Source of the DNA: Deltaproteobacteria bacterium
GTDB lineage: Bacteria > Myxococcota_A > UBA9160 > SMWR01
Assembly (NCBI GenBank): GCA_032128375.1
Contig: JAQBGU010000084.1
Span: 49,322-113,321, forward strand
DNA length: 64,000 nucleotides
Direction: 5' to 3'
Positions 10,554 through 49,607 of the stretch are shown one piece after another. The notes below the pieces were generated by a model that saw only the letters and a list, made by a program, of their open reading frames with translations, was not told the origin of the DNA and made no database searches. Numbering within the stretch: position 1 is the first letter of the stretch; each line of letters opens with the position of its first letter. The position numbers and the translations under genes are program-made.

Positions 10554-13500
10554 CTACTCGCGCATTTCGCGGACCAAGCGAAGGGCCAGAAAAGCCACGA
10601 TCGCGACCGAACCAAGCAACACGGCCCAGAGTATCAGGGTTCGGATGGGGTAACCCGATTCCGGCTCGAGCGCGGCGGCGCCCCTCAGCGCGACTCGCGG
10701 TCCGAGCACCGCAGTTGGGGAAATCGATTCTGCGCCCCCCGCAACGCGTCGGCTGATCGCCATCAGCTTTGGGGCTTCGAAGCGCGCGGCCGGTGCGCCC
10801 AGTTTTCCGTAGACCAACGTATGCGGGCCCCCGCCTTGATCGATGAAGTAGAGCTGCTCGGGAGGCCACGCGACCCGCAGCGTGGGCGCGTGCTTCCACG
10901 CGTCCCCGCCCTTCGAAGCGACGTCGATACGAATGAATCTCGCCGGGCCTGAGGTCAACTCGATGGGCTCGTTGTGGCTTTCCTGGTCGTCCGTCACGCC
11001 GAGGCGGTAGATGATCCCGCGGTGAATCTGCCGCCACGGCCCCTCCGCCTGGTCGGCCCGATAAACCTCGGCGGAGACGAGCGCGCGGCCACCAGCGAGA
11101 TCGACCTGGATCTGATCGATCGGCGGCCAACCGCCCAGATCGTACCGATACGAGCCTGAGTCGATCGAATCTCCCTCGATGGCCGCTTCCAGACGCTTCA
11201 CCGTCCGTTCGGGTGCACGTTGGACCGCCCTCACACCGAGGATCGTGGGCGCCTTCTCATTCGCCGGCCAGCTGATTCGCAGGTACTTCGCGCGACTTCG
11301 GCGAAATTCTACGCGGCGCCGTTCAATTTGATCCGTTGCGCCGGCCAACTGCGCAACGACGGCGGCGGCCGTTAGTTCCCTGTACGCCACAAAATCGCCG
11401 GTTGCCTCGACTCGCAGTGGGACCAGGAAGTCCTCGCTCTGGGGTGCAAGGTCGAGTTCGAGTCCGGCCACTTCTCCGTGCAGGCTCGAGGCATCGATGA
11501 TATAGGCCCGTGGGCTCACAGCGTCTGATGGATTCGACGCGTCAGGCTCCAGCGCAAGGGTGGCTCGCTCCCCATCGATGTCTACGTCGACGCGATACCT
11601 CCCGCCGCGCACAAGGATCTCACTCGGGGATTTGCCGTCCGGAAGTCGAAACAGAGGCAAAGAGGTCAACGTCGACACTGTGCTTTTCGGTACGACCTGT
11701 GCGGCGATGGCGTGAGGCACCGCCACTCCCGCGGCGTCGAAAACGCGGAGATCGGCGAGCCCCGGCTCCACGCTGTCGCGATAAATTTCGTATGGGAGTT
11801 CGACCCCTTGAATGACTCGGCGGCTCGTGGTTTCGATCGCACGACTCCACGCGAAATCATCTTTCGACAGGGGTGCCGCGCTTTGGGCAGACGCGGGGCG
11901 TGTACTGATTGTGGCGAAGCATACGATGATCCAGATCAACGATGTGCGGGTTGCCTGGCCAGGCGCCCCGGCCTCCGATGATCGCCCCCCGGCGTCGCCC
12001 GCTTCAGCAGCCTCTTCCGGTGGAACCGGCGACAGATATCCAACGATCAACAGCAACACGCCGACGACCAAGAAGGTGCCGATCTTTGCAGGAGTGGTGA
12101 GTTGGGAAAGATCGACCACGAAAAGCTTGATTACGGTGATTGCCAATAGCCCAGCGAACGCCATCCACGGCTTGCGAAGCCGCTGACGCGTCGAGAACCA
12201 CATCCCGGCGACCCCAACGAGCGTCCACGCGATCGACAAACATACTTGCAAGGAAATCGAGTCCCACAATGCATCCGGACGATGCGCGACCCCGGTCCAT
12301 TGGACGACGCTGCGAGTGAGTACCGCGTTCATCCAGCAGAAGGCCAAGACCACTGCGACCAGTCGCATGGCCGGTTTACTCGCCTCGAGTGCTTCCGCCG
12401 ATTCCATCGAAGCAAGCCGAAGCGCCCAGACGCCGGCTGATACCGCGATCAAGGTGATCGTGAGATCGATCGGATTGAGAAGTGGAAGATAGGCAAGCGG
12501 CGCGAAGGCGCCGTCGGCTGCGAAGTTCGTCCCGAACACCCACAACAAACCAACGATCAATATCGGTCCGACACCGAAAGTGAAATGGATCCGCGCGAAT
12601 CGACCGAATGCCCCGAGTTCCCGCCGAATCAGGTGTAGAGCCGCCGCGGAAACGCCGCCCAAGCCAATGCCGATGCCGGCGAGCCCCCAGTCGGGACCGA
12701 GTGCCAGAGATCGGTCGGCTAAACCGTACAAAGCGAACCCGACGAACAAGCTCGAGAGCCACAGCCATGGTGCGTACGCATACGAGGTCGATGCATACGC
12801 CGAATCTTCGAGCTGATGGATGACCCAGTAGATGGCAGCCAGACACAGCGGCCAAGCCACGAACCCGCCTGCGGCCAGCAAACTCGGTTGGCTCTCGAGT
12901 GCTTGTGCCAGCGCCCAGGCCGCCAATGGAATCGACAACAAGCCCATCGTCCGCCCTGACTCCCACGAGACCCGCTGGGCCCCCCAATGCAGGAGTGCCG
13001 TGCTCGCGCCGAGCAGCCCAATTTCGCAGGCCATCGTGAAACGGTCCGGAAGGAACTGTTCGAATTCGTGAACCGCCCCCCAGCCCCACCAGGCCAATCC
13101 CCAAACGCCAGCGGCCTGTGCGATCGCCCAGAACCAGATGCCCTGGTCGTCGCGTACGCGATCTGCTTCCCGCGCGATCGTGAGGCCGGCGAATGTGAGC
13201 GCCAGCGCCGACAGGAAGCGGCTGTTGGCGAGCCATTGGGTAGGTGCTTCGTAACTGCTGATCAGCCAAATGGCGAACGCGACCGCGGCCAGCGGCTGAA
13301 GGGCGAGACCCGTGACACGCGCGAGCCGACGAGATTGGCGTACGCCGATCCAATGCACGCCGGCGCCTTCGAGTGCCCAAACGATCGCGGTCGTCGGGGA
13401 GTCTTCGAAGGCGAACGGAACGGCCATCGTGGCGAGCCCGACGGCGAGCGCAATGAACGCTTCGGAGAGTTGGCGAAGCGTCTCGGGCGCAGTCCTCCAC

Positions 13501-14807
13501 AACCAGACTGCGATGCCGGCATATACAAGAGCCATCCCCGCGGTCGCGATCGCCAGCGCTAGTTCGACTGCTTTGAGCAGCGATGCCAACGCGAGTAGCG
13601 AAACCAGCGGGGTCCCGAAGACGAGCGTCGCGTCGACGATTCCCTTCAGGTTGGGCGGCTGGCGCCATGCGAAGAGCAACGCTTCGCCGGTAAAGAGAAA
13701 CAGAAAGGCAAAAACGAACGGCATGGTACTCGCCAGCTGCTCAGGCTGATAGGAAAGGACCCCCCAGGCGGTTGCGACCCCGTAGGTACACACGAATGCG
13801 AGCAAGTTGAGCACACGCCAGCTGCGCATGAACGCGATAGAGGCGATGGAGAGGTTGAGAACCAGGTAATAGCTGAACAGCGCGACATGGTTGCCCGAAC
13901 CTGTCGATGCCAGGACCGGGGCGAGAAAACCACCGAGGCTCGCGATCACGATCAATGGCAACGCACGCTGCAAGACCGCCAACATTCCAGCCGCAGCAGC
14001 GATCACCGCGAACAGCACGAACGCCAAGCCAACCGGCACCAAGTCAAAGATCCGAAACGCCATGAACGCAACCAGGTAAAGCGCTGCGAGACCGCCCCCT
14101 TGGAGCGTCGTCCCAAAGCTCGGTCGCGCCGTTCGAAGTCGAAACCCCACGCCGACGAGACCGACCCCAATCAACGCCGCGCTGGCAAGGCGCGCCTCGA
14201 TCGGAAACAGCGAATGTTCGGCCGCCCATCGCGCAAGCAATGTGATGCCCACCAACAACACGAGCACCCCGGCGCGCACAACGGTGTTGCCCCCGAAAAG
14301 CCAGGCGCGAACCGCGTTGATGCCGCGAGCGAATGCGTTGGGTGTTGGCGGGGAAGGCGGCCGGCGAGGAAATGGTGGCGCCATTGGAGGAAGGCTCGGC
14401 ACTTGTGCGCGCGGCGCGACCTCGGGAAAATCGGCTGGGGTGGCATCTGCGAAAGGAGAGGGTGCCACGGCCGGCGGCGACGTCGATGGAACGCCTCCGG
14501 TCGTCTGTTGCTCCCGCTGCGCAGGCGGCACTCGCGACGCGTCCTCGATCGTCCGCTCTAGCCTATCGACTCGGGTCAGCATTTCCGCGTGCGAACGGAA
14601 CAGCGAAGTGCTGCGCGCCCGTTCCCTACGTAGCAGCGCAAAGACGACACCGAGCCCCAGACCCAGCCCCGCGGCTGCCTCCACCCTTGAAAAAGCGCCC
14701 GCCACGAATCCGCCGAGTACGGCACCCGCCACGGCTAACCCAAGCATACCGGGGACGCCGACCTTCTCAGTTTTTTTCGATTGAGCCTGTGACACCGCTA
14801 CCCTCAC
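10554..14807 (-). CDS. DUF2339 polytopic membrane protein fused in frame to a DUF3999-like protein
   Basis: WLFGGNTVVRAGVLVL, GGFLAPVLASTGSGNH, KLFVVDL and GYLSPVPP, then DFAW, DLRVFDAAG and C-terminal LWAVLL TM helix; start may be 14747. Confidence 0.8.
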   Translation of the reverse strand: MRVAVSQAQSKKTEKVGVPGMLGLAVAGAVLGGFVAGAFSRVEAAAGLGLGLGVVFALLRRERARSTSLFRSHAEMLTRVDRLERTIEDASRVPPAQREQQTTGGVPSTSPPAVAPSPFADATPADFPEVAPRAQVPSLPPMAPPFPRRPPSPPTPNAFARGINAVRAWLFGGNTVVRAGVLVLLVGITLLARWAAEHSLFPIEARLASAALIGVGLVGVGFRLRTARPSFGTTLQGGGLAALYLVAFMAFRIFDLVPVGLAFVLFAVIAAAAGMLAVLQRALPLIVIASLGGFLAPVLASTGSGNHVALFSYYLVLNLSIASIAFMRSWRVLNLLAFVCTYGVATAWGVLSYQPEQLASTMPFVFAFLFLFTGEALLFAWRQPPNLKGIVDATLVFGTPLVSLLALASLLKAVELALAIATAGMALVYAGIAVWLWRTAPETLRQLSEAFIALAVGLATMAVPFAFEDSPTTAIVWALEGAGVHWIGVRQSRRLARVTGLALQPLAAVAFAIWLISSYEAPTQWLANSRFLSALALTFAGLTIAREADRVRDDQGIWFWAIAQAAGVWGLAWWGWGAVHEFEQFLPDRFTMACEIGLLGASTALLHWGAQRVSWESGRTMGLLSIPLAAWALAQALESQPSLLAAGGFVAWPLCLAAIYWVIHQLEDSAYASTSYAYAPWLWLSSLFVGFALYGLADRSLALGPDWGLAGIGIGLGGVSAAALHLIRRELGAFGRFARIHFTFGVGPILIVGLLWVFGTNFAADGAFAPLAYLPLLNPIDLTITLIAVSAGVWALRLASMESAEALEASKPAMRLVAVVLAFCWMNAVLTRSVVQWTGVAHRPDALWDSISLQVCLSIAWTLVGVAGMWFSTRQRLRKPWMAFAGLLAITVIKLFVVDLSQLTTPAKIGTFLVVGVLLLIVGYLSPVPPEEAAEAGDAGGRSSEAGAPGQATRTSLIWIIVCFATISTRPASAQSAAPLSKDDFAWSRAIETTSRRVIQGVELPYEIYRDSVEPGLADLRVFDAAGVAVPHAIAAQVVPKSTVSTLTSLPLFRLPDGKSPSEILVRGGRYRVDVDIDGERATLALEPDASNPSDAVSPRAYIIDASSLHGEVAGLELDLAPQSEDFLVPLRVEATGDFVAYRELTAAAVVAQLAGATDQIERRRVEFRRSRAKYLRISWPANEKAPTILGVRAVQRAPERTVKRLEAAIEGDSIDSGSYRYDLGGWPPIDQIQVDLAGGRALVSAEVYRADQAEGPWRQIHRGIIYRLGVTDDQESHNEPIELTSGPARFIRIDVASKGGDAWKHAPTLRVAWPPEQLYFIDQGGGPHTLVYGKLGAPAARFEAPKLMAISRRVAGGAESISPTAVLGPRVALRGAAALEPESGYPIRTLILWAVLLGSVAIVAFLALRLVREMRE

Positions 14808-16751: not shown

Positions 16752-16920
16752 GGCTGAGGTTTCCAACCCCACGATCAATTCGGTCGCTCAGCCGCTACGG
16801 TGCCGACAACCATGGCCGCGTCCCATCCACTTCCGGCCGCCCGCCAGGTACGCCGGGCGCCGGGTTGGCGGCGCGGTCGGCTGACGAAAGACAATCTCTT
16901 GTGGGAAACGGAATCTCATC

Positions 16921-17490
16921 ATGACGAAGCTGTTGGTTCTGAGCGGTAGTAGCCGAGCGGAATCCTTCAATCTGAAGCTGGCGACCCAACTCGCGTCGAT
17001 CGCCAAACAGGAAGGCGCAGAAGTTGCGCTCGTGAATCTCGAGGACTTTGAATTGCCGATATACAATGGTGATTTGGAAGGCACCGAAGGGTTGCCGGAC
17101 GCAGCCAGGCGACTCAAGAAGCTGCTACAAGACAACACCGGACTCATCGTCACATGTCCAGAATACAATGGCTTCATGACACCCTTACTGATCAACGCGA
17201 TCGACTGGTGCACACGTTCTGACGACGCATCTGTAGATCTGTCTGGCTTTGCTGACAAGACACTACTGGTTGCGAGCGCATCGCCTGGTCCCGGCGGTGG
17301 GGGTCGCGCGAGTACTCACCTGAAAACCATGCTATCTGCAATTGGTTCCGTGGTATTTCCCCAGTCACTGACCGTGTCTTCTGCATTCAATGCATTTGGC
17401 GATCAGGGAGAGTTTACAGACGCTTCGATGGCGAAGCGCGCTCAGCGGCTCGTCAGCAAGTTCATTCAATTCAGCCAGCGCTTCGAATGA
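16921..17490 (+). CDS. NADPH-dependent FMN reductase
   Basis: SGSSRAESFN, CPEYNG, NAIDW and SASPGPGGG motifs. Confidence 0.9.
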   Translation: MTKLLVLSGSSRAESFNLKLATQLASIAKQEGAEVALVNLEDFELPIYNGDLEGTEGLPDAARRLKKLLQDNTGLIVTCPEYNGFMTPLLINAIDWCTRSDDASVDLSGFADKTLLVASASPGPGGGGRASTHLKTMLSAIGSVVFPQSLTVSSAFNAFGDQGEFTDASMAKRAQRLVSKFIQFSQRFE

Positions 17491-17514
17491 CTCGCTCGGC
17501 TTCAGCTGAGCGGG
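17491..17514 (+). terminator. GC-rich hairpin after the FMN reductase stop (no U-tract)
   Basis: ctcgctcggc-ttca-gctgagcggg pairs with G-U wobbles. Confidence 0.35.
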
Positions 17515-17625
17515 GCAGCTCCGAGAAGGAACAGCGTTCGGATTCACCGAGCGCTGGTGTCGGCATCGGCGAAAAGTGGCTCATCAGGCGGGCTGAATTC
17601 GCGCGTCGATCGGAGGGCTGTGCAC

Positions 17626-18642
17626 ATGGATAGGCGAACCATCGGGCGCTGGAGCGCGCAGGAATTGCGCGACCGAAGAGCCAAGGGCGTTGAGATCGTG
17701 GTCGTCGATGTTCGCAACGGCTACGCCCGCGCTTTCGAACCGTGTGAGATCCCCGGCACCTTGTGGCTGCCGCTATCGGAAGTTTCTGAACAGTCGCACC
17801 GCTTGTCCCGGAGCGCCGAGATCGTCACCTATTGCACCTGACCAGAGGATATGAGCAGCGCCCGTGCGGCGCTGTGGCTGAACGAAGAGGGGTTCGCCGT
17901 CCACGTCTTGCAAGACGGCCTCGGAGCCTGGAAGGAAGCGGGCTACCCGACGGCTGCCGTCGATCTCGATGAGCTTCCGACGTTCGATCCTGAAGGCACC
18001 GGCGCCAAGACCCCCAACGAAACGGACAGAGCCGCGAGGCAGCACACCTCTGCGTTCCTCCCGGGGCTGGTCGAGAACTACGTCAACAAGCACGATTTGC
18101 CGATGCGACGCGATCTGACGGTACTGTTCGTCGACATCGCCGACTCCACCCGTACCATCGTCGAGCGAACACCTTCTGAGGCGCTTGCCTTCGTCCAGCG
18201 ATTCATGGGCATCGTGACGCAAGGCGCCCTCAACTACTGTGGGGACGTCAAGGATTATGAGGGCGACGGTGCGCTGCTGTACTTCGAAACCGTAACAGAG
18301 GCTACGCAAGCTGCGTTCTCGATTCGGCAAGCGCTTGCGAACGAGACGCCCGAAGTCGGCGATCGCCTTCGCGCTCGACTCAGCCTCGACACGGGCTCCA
18401 TTGTCATTGGGGTCATCGGCACACCGCTGCGGCGGTCCGTCGCCCTGATCGGCGAGAGCATCAACCTGGCGGCGCGGCTGTTAAAGGAAATCCCCCCCGG
18501 CGGCATCATCGCGACCGAGGCAGTAGTCCAACGACTCCGCGACGAGACACCCGCGCTGGCAGCGCAGTTCAGCGTGCTGAACGAGCCAATGACACTCAAG
18601 GGATTCGAAGAAAAGAAAGTCACCGCCTATCGGGCCTCGTGA
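17626..18642 (+). CDS. Putative selenoprotein: rhodanese domain (C-x-U) fused to a class III nucleotide cyclase, 338 aa, Sec at codon 72
   Basis: ORFs 17557-17841 and 17851-18642 are in the same frame, separated by TGA at 17839-17841 inside the rhodanese active-site loop; GGAGG RBS before ATG 17626; cyclase motifs FVDIADST, GDG and NLAARL. Confidence 0.8.
17856..17874 (+). promoter_or_regulatory. Candidate bacterial SECIS hairpin
   Basis: CAGCGCC-CGTGC-GGCGCTG, a perfect 7-bp stem; the loop follows a 21-nt spacer after the UGA and has G at position 2. Confidence 0.65.
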
Positions 18643-18713
18643 CGACAAATCGACCGCGATCTCCAACGAGTCCCGAAAATTTCGCATCGAACCCAGATCA
18701 ACGAGGCCCCCCA

Positions 18714-19352
18714 ATGAAGATCACCATCTTTGGCGCGACCGGCGACCTGGGCAACGAATGCCTCGAGCAAGCGCTGGAAGCGGGCCACGAAATCACGGTC
18801 TTGGCCCGCACCCCGTCGAAGCTACCGAGCGGCCTGGCGAGTCGGGTCGCGGTCATCGAAGGCGACGGTCTCAACGCCCAAGACGTCGAGCGGGCGCTCG
18901 GCAACGGTGCGGAGGCGATCCTGTTCGCGATTGGTATCGATAAACATTCGCCTGAGGATCTTTCGACCGACGCAACGCGACACATCCTGGCGGCGATGCG
19001 GCGGCTGGGCATTCGAAGGTTCGTGTGGTGCGGCGGAGGCAGCACTCTCGTCGACGAGGACGTGATTACCTTTGGAGCGAAGTTCGTGCATTTCTTTGCC
19101 AGTACTTTTATGGGGCTCCGACAGCGCGACAAAGTCCATCAACTCGAGCTACTCGAGCAGAATCTCGATTTGGATTGGATCGGCATTCGGCCGCTGCAAA
19201 TGGGCGCTGGTCCGAGGCGCCAGGAATATCGGCTGGGATTCGACGCATTCAGCGGATTTTCGAGAATCACCTTTGCGGACTGCGCGCATGCGATGATCCA
19301 GATGCTTACTGACGACACGTGGGTCCACAAAGCACCCATTATTCAGTATTGA
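18714..19352 (+). CDS. NAD(P)H-binding flavin/biliverdin IX-beta reductase-like protein
   Basis: MKITIFGATGDLG, LARTPSKL, LDWIGIRP and ITFADCA patterns. Confidence 0.85.
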   Translation: MKITIFGATGDLGNECLEQALEAGHEITVLARTPSKLPSGLASRVAVIEGDGLNAQDVERALGNGAEAILFAIGIDKHSPEDLSTDATRHILAAMRRLGIRRFVWCGGGSTLVDEDVITFGAKFVHFFASTFMGLRQRDKVHQLELLEQNLDLDWIGIRPLQMGAGPRRQEYRLGFDAFSGFSRITFADCAHAMIQMLTDDTWVHKAPIIQY

Positions 19353-19407
19353 GCATTCTCCGGCCTGCAGACAGGCGACGGTGCAGAAGCCGACCAGGTC
19401 GACAGTA

Positions 19408-19496
19408 GTGACGCCACCCCACACCAAACCATTGGGAAGGTGGAAGTTATTAATAACAACCGTGGGAAGGGTACAAGTCAACAAGGGTGGCGCCAC
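19408..19496. repeat. Symmetric intergenic element: outer 12-bp inverted repeat, central palindrome and inner direct repeats
   Basis: gtgacgccaccc/gggtggcgccac (11/12 match), GTTATTAATAAC at 19446-19457, and aacc(at/g)tgggaagg twice. Confidence 0.6.
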
Positions 19497-19604
19497 CGTT
19501 AACGACTATCGCAGCGAGTTGACCAACGGGCATGCCCCATAGTGGGTCATTCGGCTGGCCGTATCTGGATCGACTTTCGCTGAAAGTGCGGGCGGTCGCT
19601 GTTG

Positions 19605-49113: not shown

Positions 49114-49607
49114 GACTACGTGGAAGCTCTCGCCGCGTAGCGGCGAGCGCGCAACCTGGGGTCTATCGCGATGCATCGCACATCCCCTGTTGGCCGTCGC
49201 CTCGGGTGGCTACTTCCCAGGCCTTTGGACGTCACCCTTCATCGGTGTCGCGAGCGCCGCGCTCTGGCTTCGACTGCGCAGGGCAACGCATCGGGATGTC
49301 TCGAATTGATCCAAAAATGTGTTGGAATGACGAGCTTCGAAGATACTGCGATGAGCCGGAGAATCCGGATTCGGCGAGATGCACCAACAGGCTCGCGAGT
49401 CATCTCTACACCACGCGGGGGCCAAGCTGCCTGTCGCTCGTAGTAGTGGCTGCGTGGATGATGCTCATCCGGTCGGCTTCAGAGGTTTCCTGCGAGGTCG
49501 CGCTCTTGCGAAGCGAACCTGTCTTCCAGCATAGGTGTCGAATACCGCACGCTCTGTAACTGGCACCGAGTTCGCGGCTACGGTCGCCCGAGTGGTACTA
49601 TCTGGCT

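Follow-up and report, generated by a model that had tools for sequence, protein, structure and literature searches.

Most selenoproteins known from bacteria are enzymes of redox chemistry or metabolism. Here we analyse a gene at 17626..18642 on the + strand of a 64,000-nucleotide stretch of DNA from Deltaproteobacteria bacterium (positions 49,322 to 113,321 of contig JAQBGU010000084.1, assembly GCA_032128375.1; hereafter the window), in which one in-frame TGA codon, read as selenocysteine (Sec, U), joins a rhodanese domain to a class III nucleotide cyclase domain in a protein of 338 residues. An earlier interpretation made from the DNA letters alone (hereafter the sequence-only reading) had proposed that this read-through product is a Sec-containing sensor cyclase.

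Rhodanese-related selenoproteins are indeed known from bacteria, as that reading had stated. Five forms are catalogued in PMC13188914, including the C-x-U form 3 (NF041203), whose table entry cites Zhang & Gladyshev 2005 (ref. 13 therein), and the TsoB rhodanese/DsbD fusion. NF041203 (rhodanese_LYCAU) resembles the N-terminal part of the present protein in being a single rhodanese domain with the canonical Cys and a Sec residue two positions on, but it is a stand-alone family with a 126-position profile and an LYCAU motif, whereas here a YCTUP turn is fused to a linker and a cyclase. Although NF041203 is the best NCBIfam match to our protein, the score of 56.8 bits lies under the 115-bit cut-off, as do those of four relatives (46.5-83.3 bits), and the protein is therefore not a member of that equivalog. 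TsoB ('form 5', NF045694) likewise has a Sec-bearing rhodanese fused to another functional module, but it differs in its UxxxxU motif and in its partner domain, and its model, which has a cut-off of 805 bits, scores no more than 17-18 bits here. In addition, U-x-U rhodanese-related sulfurtransferase selenoproteins have been reported in Olavius algarvensis symbionts (PMC1976440); the second Sec is two residues from the first, as in 13 loci of the present family, whereas these proteins, compared by description and not by sequence, are of the sulfurtransferase type without a cyclase.

On the cyclase side, the best sequence and fold matches are OaPAC (5x4t/4yus) and CyaC of Spirulina platensis (1wc1), which share with our protein the cyclase fold, the Asp pair, the Asn/Arg residues, a preceding helical element and a design with N-terminal input and C-terminal cyclase. 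They differ in the input, which is BLUF, GAF, PAS or HAMP rather than a Sec-rhodanese, and in carrying Lys/Thr(Asp) in place of Asp210/Ala273. A literature search for a selenoprotein or a rhodanese fused to a class III cyclase, with incomplete coverage of recent catalogues, returned nothing relevant; the word 'cyclase' has no occurrence in the accessible text of the 2026 review PMC13188914, nor in the deep-Sep paper and the 4 supplements searched. The fusion to a class III cyclase seems not to have been described before, and the same goes for its U-x-U variants and for the Cys counterparts located in copper clusters. The sequence-only reading knew of no described Sec-containing nucleotide cyclase; the fusion does look new, and the C-x-U rhodanese module itself is already known.

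A rhodanese–cyclase gene with one in-frame TGA codon

The coding sequence occupies a single frame from the ATG at 17626, includes the Sec codon and terminates at the TGA at 18640-18642. A Shine-Dalgarno-like GGAGGG (17612..17617, +) lies 8 nucleotides upstream of the ATG, the start MDRR... is also used by the same-genus orthologue, and orthologues align with the protein end to end. Exactly one internal stop is present between 17626 and 18642, the TGA at 17839..17841 (codon 72), which is read here as Sec (U72) on the basis of the TGA/Cys column in homologues, the Sec machinery of the genome and contigs from four sequencing runs. Mechanical listing of open reading frames (ORFs) divides the gene at this codon into 17557..17841 and 17851..18642, so the earlier description of two ORFs sharing one frame with a single TGA between them is accurate.

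The surroundings of codon 72 read IVTYC-T-TGA-PEDMSSARAA, and the active-site turn Y-C-T-U-P of the product carries a C-x-U motif. In the read-through protein, a rhodanese-like domain (Pfam PF00581, 35.3 bits against a cut-off of 22.2) covers residues 10-105 (17653..17940, +), and the TGA therefore sits in the middle of the domain; neither half on its own makes a whole rhodanese, as had been stated. The nearest solved rhodanese is BH2092 (3o3w/3nhv, E 2e-9), in which the active-site Cys of 'iiTYC' (3o3w) aligns with Cys70, encoded by the TGC at 17833..17835 (+). This places the TGA at +2 of the active-site loop, two residues past the catalytic Cys, in agreement with the sequence-only reading. 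An AlphaFold2 run on a 66-sequence alignment gave a model with a mean predicted local distance difference test (pLDDT) of 88 and a predicted template modelling score (pTM) of 0.81, in which confidence is high for both domains and low for the linker. In this model, strand 65-69 is directly followed by helix 73-87, so that C70-T71-U72 would form a turn at the N-terminus of the helix.

Some relatives also contain stand-alone rhodanese genes with an in-frame TGA (L033:1510-1926 (-); G047:C1:146084-146425; G037:C1:1792267-1792779). The stand-alone rhodanese examined reads YCTUPNEASSARVA and scores 71.6 bits with NF041203, below the cut-off. The fused rhodanese domain probably derives from such a stand-alone Sec-rhodanese gene.

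Conservation of codons 72 and 70

The read-through protein, used as query against the genome and 60 relatives, gave 10 full-length copies, own copy included. Eight of them, from the own genome and seven relatives at 38-74% identity, have exactly one TGA, and the other two, at 41-42% identity, have none. All eight TGA codons fall in one alignment column, in which the other two copies have Cys (YCLCSGE and YCLCHGE). A wider set of 79 loci from species-representative genomes, which includes the relatives of the first set, gave the same picture: codon 72 is TGA in 42 loci, TGC in 19 and TGT in 6. No rhodanese domain is aligned in the other 12, which are cyclase-only paralogues, fragments or a frameshifted contig. 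Each Sec form contains one or two TGA codons and no other stop within the aligned ORF. In the 67 of 79 loci aligned at codon 72, the residue is thus always TGA or Cys, never Trp or Arg, and the occurrence of a conserved TGA in the same column as the Cys of homologues is not a matter of chance. The sequence-only reading had expected related rhodaneses to carry a YCxCP loop, which was not borne out, as the Cys forms of the family read YCLC(S/H/N/A)G instead.

Of the 42 loci with TGA at codon 72, 13 (L046, L048, L049, L054, L056-L059, L061, L062 and L065-L067) have a second TGA at codon 70, giving Y-U-T-U-P, a U-x-U motif in which the canonical rhodanese Cys is itself Sec. All 66 sequences of the family alignment have either Cys or Sec in column 70. 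Judged by these alignments, positions 70 and 72 both use the chalcogen. Conservation extends to both sides of codon 72, with D28, R30, Y69 and C70 invariant upstream, and S78, R80, G89, G98 and W102 as well as the cyclase core downstream. At residue 76, where the downstream ORF has its ATG here, at least 90% of the 66 sequences have Ala.

A quick IQ-TREE tree of these 66 sequences showed two main clades. One is all-Sec and consists of nine C-x-U sequences, whose titled records are Methylomirabilota or Rokubacteria (three carry no taxon label), and of 26 sequences mostly labelled Binatia (14 C-x-U and 12 U-x-U). The other contains Tectomicrobia, Myxococcota (five C-x-C and five C-x-U) and 20 further C-x-C sequences, 19 of which are from Nevskiales and related gammaproteobacteria and one of which is labelled Binatota (L098). 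Names in titles of metagenome-assembled genomes such as 'uncultured Enterobacteriaceae', 'Spirochaetales' and 'Opitutales' look unreliable and were not used. Mapped on the tree, the C72/U72 label requires 4 changes and the U-x-U label 5; well-supported branches force at least 2 and at least 3 of these, respectively, indicating that U-x-U was gained or lost no fewer than three times.

A global reassignment of TGA was also considered and ruled out, because the gene's own stop is a TGA, beyond which (18640-18642) the translated sequence is without conservation, and because the homologues have Cys at codon 72 rather than Trp or Gly.

SECIS-like hairpin and selenocysteine machinery

A hairpin resembling a selenocysteine insertion sequence (SECIS) was found at 17855..17875 (+), with an 8-bp stem formed by GCAGCGCC and GGCGCUGU and an apical loop CGUGC, as evidenced by folding and by its conservation in Sec forms. 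It has a folding energy of -14.6 kcal/mol (z -2.6 against dinucleotide shuffles) and begins 14 nucleotides downstream of the TGA, with a UGA-to-loop spacing of 21 nucleotides. The bacterial SECIS consensus given in PMC13188914 (Fig. 2 legend) asks for a loop of 3-9 nucleotides on a stem of 4-16 bp, a G among the first two loop positions, a UGA-loop distance of 16-37 nucleotides and a minimum free energy (MFE) of -7.5 kcal/mol or lower, and the hairpin agrees with this published model on all four points. The stem is retained across nine Sec forms, and in two same-genus sequences one compensatory exchange of C-G to U-A is produced by two synonymous third-position changes.

As the hairpin overlaps the codons of the conserved SSARAALW, synonymous codons were resampled in the controls. 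The MFE of the whole region gave a mean z against synonymous shuffles of -0.64 for 41 Sec forms and of +0.09 for 25 Cys forms. A position-specific measure of the stem is clearer. Among the 41 Sec forms, the longest perfect stem measures 8 bp in 24 cases, 6 bp in 7 and 5 bp in 10, and in 37 of the 41 its 5' arm begins 14-17 nucleotides after the codon, with CGKGC, CGKGU (K = G/U) or GGU as the loop, whereas the 25 Cys forms have a mean stem of 4.6 bp, reaching 8 bp in only one and lying at inconsistent positions. The hairpin thus tracks the TGA forms and not the Cys forms. A scan of 17780-17960 against Rfam at E <= 10 found no SECIS family and returned only a chance 13.9-bit match to a frameshift element.

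The lone Cys form with an 8-bp hairpin at the SECIS position, 16 nucleotides past the Cys codon, is a Myxococcota locus (L100), and this hairpin may be a relic of a recent change from Sec to Cys.

The source assembly (6.2 Mb, 249 contigs, 91% complete, with the window on contig C84) encodes the complete set of Sec components searched for. selA (511 bits), selB (291 bits) and selD (334 bits) all score above their curated cut-offs; tRNA-Sec was detected with 68.7 bits, also above its cut-off, and was called by ARAGORN as tRNA-SeC with anticodon tca. SelD is itself a selenoprotein with an in-frame TGA (...PAGGUARK; L001:1486-2535, contig C140 of G000). Among relatives, selA was found in nine of the nine that carry the gene, including two with the Cys form, and was not found in any of the five gammaproteobacterial isolates carrying the Cys form.

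Sequencing error at the TGA was assessed with Logan contigs from four runs of one study, each of which spans 17600-18100 in one piece and keeps the TGA. Three of these contigs agree in every base, and the assembly may derive from them; the fourth shows 14 differences in 501 bases, including a synonymous TAT>TAC change at 17832 and none at 17839-17841. With the Sec machinery found in the genome, Cys as the alternative residue in homologues and the TGA present in the contigs of all four runs, each refuting condition that the sequence-only reading had named was examined and none was observed, and its reading of the gene as a selenoprotein is supported overall.

Linker, cyclase domain and predicted fold

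Between the two domains lies a variable linker of low confidence (residues 109-159; 17950..18102, +), with pLDDT values below 50 at residues 122-127 and 130-146. It ends in the segment F144-L145-P146-x-L148 (18055-18072), in which F144, L145, P146 and L148 show little or no variation among 10 sequences, and which aligns to the helix linking BLUF and cyclase in OaPAC.

The class III nucleotide cyclase domain spans residues 163-335 (18112..18630, +; Pfam PF00211, Guanylate_cyc, 31.1 bits against a cut-off of 21.9). Foldseek comparison of the C-terminal half of the model returned CyaC of S. platensis (E 1e-14, template modelling score (TM) 0.78-0.81) as well as the guanylate cyclase domains 6sir and 2w01; Pfam and Foldseek together bear out the two domain assignments made from the letters alone. 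HMMER alignment to OaPAC places D170 (18133-18135), D214 (18265-18267), N280 (18463-18465) and R284 (18475-18477), all on the + strand, opposite their OaPAC counterparts; we take D170 and D214 to be the metal-binding aspartates and N280/R284 the transition-state pair. D170, D210 and D214 are invariant in the 66 sequences, and R284 is nearly so. The cyclase domain is probably catalytic, as judged from these residues.

The identity of the product is a separate matter. Asp210 (18253-18255, +), the invariant residue four positions before D214, replaces a Lys of OaPAC, and Ala273, seven residues before N280, replaces a Thr. Presumably positions 210 and 273 are those that specify the purine, with Lys/Asp(Thr) for adenine and a Glu/Cys-type pair for guanine, and Asp210/Ala273 corresponds to neither pair. 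With these residues in place of Lys/Asp(Thr), the nucleotide specificity is not readable from the sequence. Matches to PycC, the Pycsar cyclase model of PADLOC (best E 4e-12), were taken as general class III homology rather than as a sign of defence or of cCMP/cUMP synthesis.

Proposed function and alternative explanations

Combined with the conservation, hairpin, machinery and run data, the best overall explanation, to which we assign a probability of about 0.85, is that of a single gene for a 338-residue cytosolic Sec-rhodanese/class III cyclase protein in which UGA-72 is recoded. That the locus is a genuine, conserved selenoprotein gene is held with even greater confidence. The UGA at codon 72 would be recoded as Sec by the genome's SelA, SelB, SelD and tRNA-Sec, guided by the hairpin 14 nucleotides downstream, to yield a product with the rhodanese (turn Y-C70-T-U72-P), the flexible linker, the FLPxL segment and the class III cyclase in this order. 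We propose that this product is a one-component sensor, in which the Cys70/Sec72 pair would change state through selenenylsulfide formation upon oxidation, through loading with persulfide/perselenide or through coordination of a soft metal, for example Cu(I). The linker would relay this change to the dimeric cyclase and so alter cyclic nucleotide synthesis. The C-x-U centre may in this way control second-messenger synthesis, as the sequence-only reading had suggested. We give an even chance to the protein being a sensor cyclase with the Cys/Sec pair as its input, a role drawn from the architecture. A broader picture falls somewhat short of even odds, namely that this is the first selenoprotein that is a second-messenger synthase; that a Cys/Sec or Sec/Sec rhodanese pair senses Cu(I), persulfide or oxidant; that the family occurs in several uncultured phyla (by record titles Binatia, Methylomirabilota/Rokubacteria, Myxococcota and Tectomicrobia); that the product is maybe not cAMP; and that some relatives add a third Sec in a peroxiredoxin-like domain.

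Several observations weigh against the recoded sensor cyclase or parts of it. With regard to the sensor role, the neighbours of the window gene are not conserved beside its orthologues, and a metal ATPase is near only 2 of the 42 Sec-form loci (L043 and L044). Synonymous shuffles keep much of the hairpin: the stem of the window gene itself reaches P = 0.05 against them, and the difference in MFE z between Sec and Cys forms (Mann-Whitney p 0.004), calculated on non-independent sequences, is weakly discriminating. Two relatives retain Cys despite having selA. More generally, the locus counts overstate independence because the sequences are related. In the cyclase, N280 is present in the clade of the window gene but is P or H in distant family members, and the absence of the Lys/Asp pair could mean low or unusual cyclase activity. 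No RNA runs containing the gene are listed for the stretch.

Could the TGA simply be a real stop, leaving either a nonsense pseudogene or a natural split into a 71-residue fragment and a 263-residue cyclase from the ATG at 17851? Standard gene callers treat it so, truncated cyclases of this kind number in the hundreds in public databases, and that ATG lies only 9 nucleotides past the TGA. We nevertheless consider this very improbable, as the TGA is kept in 42 loci over several phyla with both flanks conserved at the protein level, the sole alternative at codon 72 is Cys, the break falls in mid-domain, the downstream ATG is unconserved (the Ala column at residue 76), and both the hairpin and the Sec machinery are present. 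A selenoprotein whose rhodanese works as a sulfur or selenium transferase rather than as a sensor, with a cyclase that is degenerate or acts as a nucleotide-binding regulator, would fit the missing Lys/Asp purine pair (D210, A273), the loss of the transition-state Asn in part of the family and the resemblance of the rhodanese domain to catalytic single-domain rhodaneses. However, the 66 sequences show little or no variation at both metal Asp residues, R284, G213-D214-G215 and many positions of the cyclase core, N280 is kept in the clade of the window gene, the fold matches active cyclases with a TM of about 0.8, and class III cyclases of bacteria usually follow the layout of N-terminal sensor and C-terminal catalytic domain, so that this alternative is quite unlikely, though less so than a real stop.

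A special case of the sensor role, in which the family senses soft metals (Cu(I), perhaps Ag/Hg), the C-x-C, C-x-U or U-x-U pair acts as chelate and the cyclic nucleotide tunes metal homeostasis, was evaluated in a survey of genomic context, for which the flanking ORFs of 67 loci were clustered and Pfam was run on cluster representatives. Copper-resistance genes, which encode a P1B ATPase (HMBD and YHS domains), multicopper oxidase, DUF411 protein or MerR regulator, lie within 3 kb of 20 of the 25 Cys-form loci. These clusters, in which a gene for a cytochrome c-DUF4440 protein also occurs, belong to gammaproteobacterial loci (L081-L115) and to L083 and L100. In five loci (L111 of Hydrocarboniphaga effusa AP103, L105 of Solimonas fluminis, L107, L109 and L083), the end of the P1B ATPase gene (HMBD + YHS) coincides with the start of the cyclase gene, and ATPase adjacency recurs in three separate clades of the tree, in Nevskiales, in Myxococcota L083/L100 and in the Sec forms L043/L044. 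Selenolate is, moreover, a strong soft-metal binder. Against this, the context extends to just two of the 42 Sec-form loci and to none of the 9 window ORFs scanned around the gene, most of the 20 copper loci come from one gammaproteobacterial order and therefore represent few independent events, and the relatives fused to AhpC/TSA domains favour peroxide or thiol chemistry. Soft-metal sensing as the role of the whole family is accordingly rather unlikely, although the copper link is a real lead for part of the family, phylogenetically clustered and not reaching the clade of the window gene.

Should the recoded sensor cyclase be true, selenium chemistry would also serve signal sensing by a cyclic-nucleotide synthase. 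The repeated exchange of Cys and Sec at two positions provides a natural series, C-x-C, C-x-U and U-x-U, for the contribution of selenium to such a sensor, and the Cys forms of cultured Nevskiales that lack selA (Solimonas, Hydrocarboniphaga and Sinimarinibacterium) would allow signal and product to be tested without selenoprotein expression.

Database annotation and extended relatives

A search of 5.8 billion proteins, with 8000 candidates scored, gave 462 relatives at E <= 1e-20. All 120 matches listed cover 58-78% of the query, are 200-355 residues long and begin after the TGA, and those with names among them are called 'class 3 adenylate cyclase' or 'adenylate/guanylate cyclase domain-containing protein'. 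The prediction that annotation pipelines would split the gene was therefore correct, each of the 120 matches listed being the truncated cyclase half. As the family is recorded in truncated form and no NCBIfam model spans the rhodanese-cyclase architecture, censuses of selenoproteomes and of cyclase domains would miss it.

Four metagenomic relatives (P0089, P0097, P0112 and P0114; 54-60% identical) continue beyond the cyclase with an AhpC/TSA domain and break off at ...FYRGEW, presumably where peroxiredoxin-like proteins have their W-C/U-P motif. This abrupt end points to a further in-frame TGA and suggests that these relatives may be three-domain, multi-Sec proteins. In locus L048, a stop occurs at the corresponding place, and a similar 'QQLEE' stretch comes after it. 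At the DNA level, no AhpC/TSA extension was found by a motif scan of all loci, in 193 genomes of the order, in 225 genomes of the class or in a metagenome scan (9 loci).

Genomic neighbourhood

The ORF scan of the window identified an FMN reductase upstream of the gene (16921-17490) and an NAD(P)H-binding protein downstream (about 18715-19352), with RPE65, CoA-transferase and GST genes farther out. A tblastn search of six window neighbours against 88 orthologous loci found no common neighbour except one unrelated CoA-transferase match, and scanning 16800-19500 for promoters and terminators gave nothing exceeding shuffle expectation. Many C-x-U and U-x-U loci of the Binatia-type clade adjoin genes for a luciferase-like monooxygenase, an ABC-F ATPase and a hydroxyacid dehydrogenase. 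Elsewhere in the window, at 10554-14807 on the - strand, a 1417-residue ORF combines DUF2339 (predicted membrane protein) with DUF3999.

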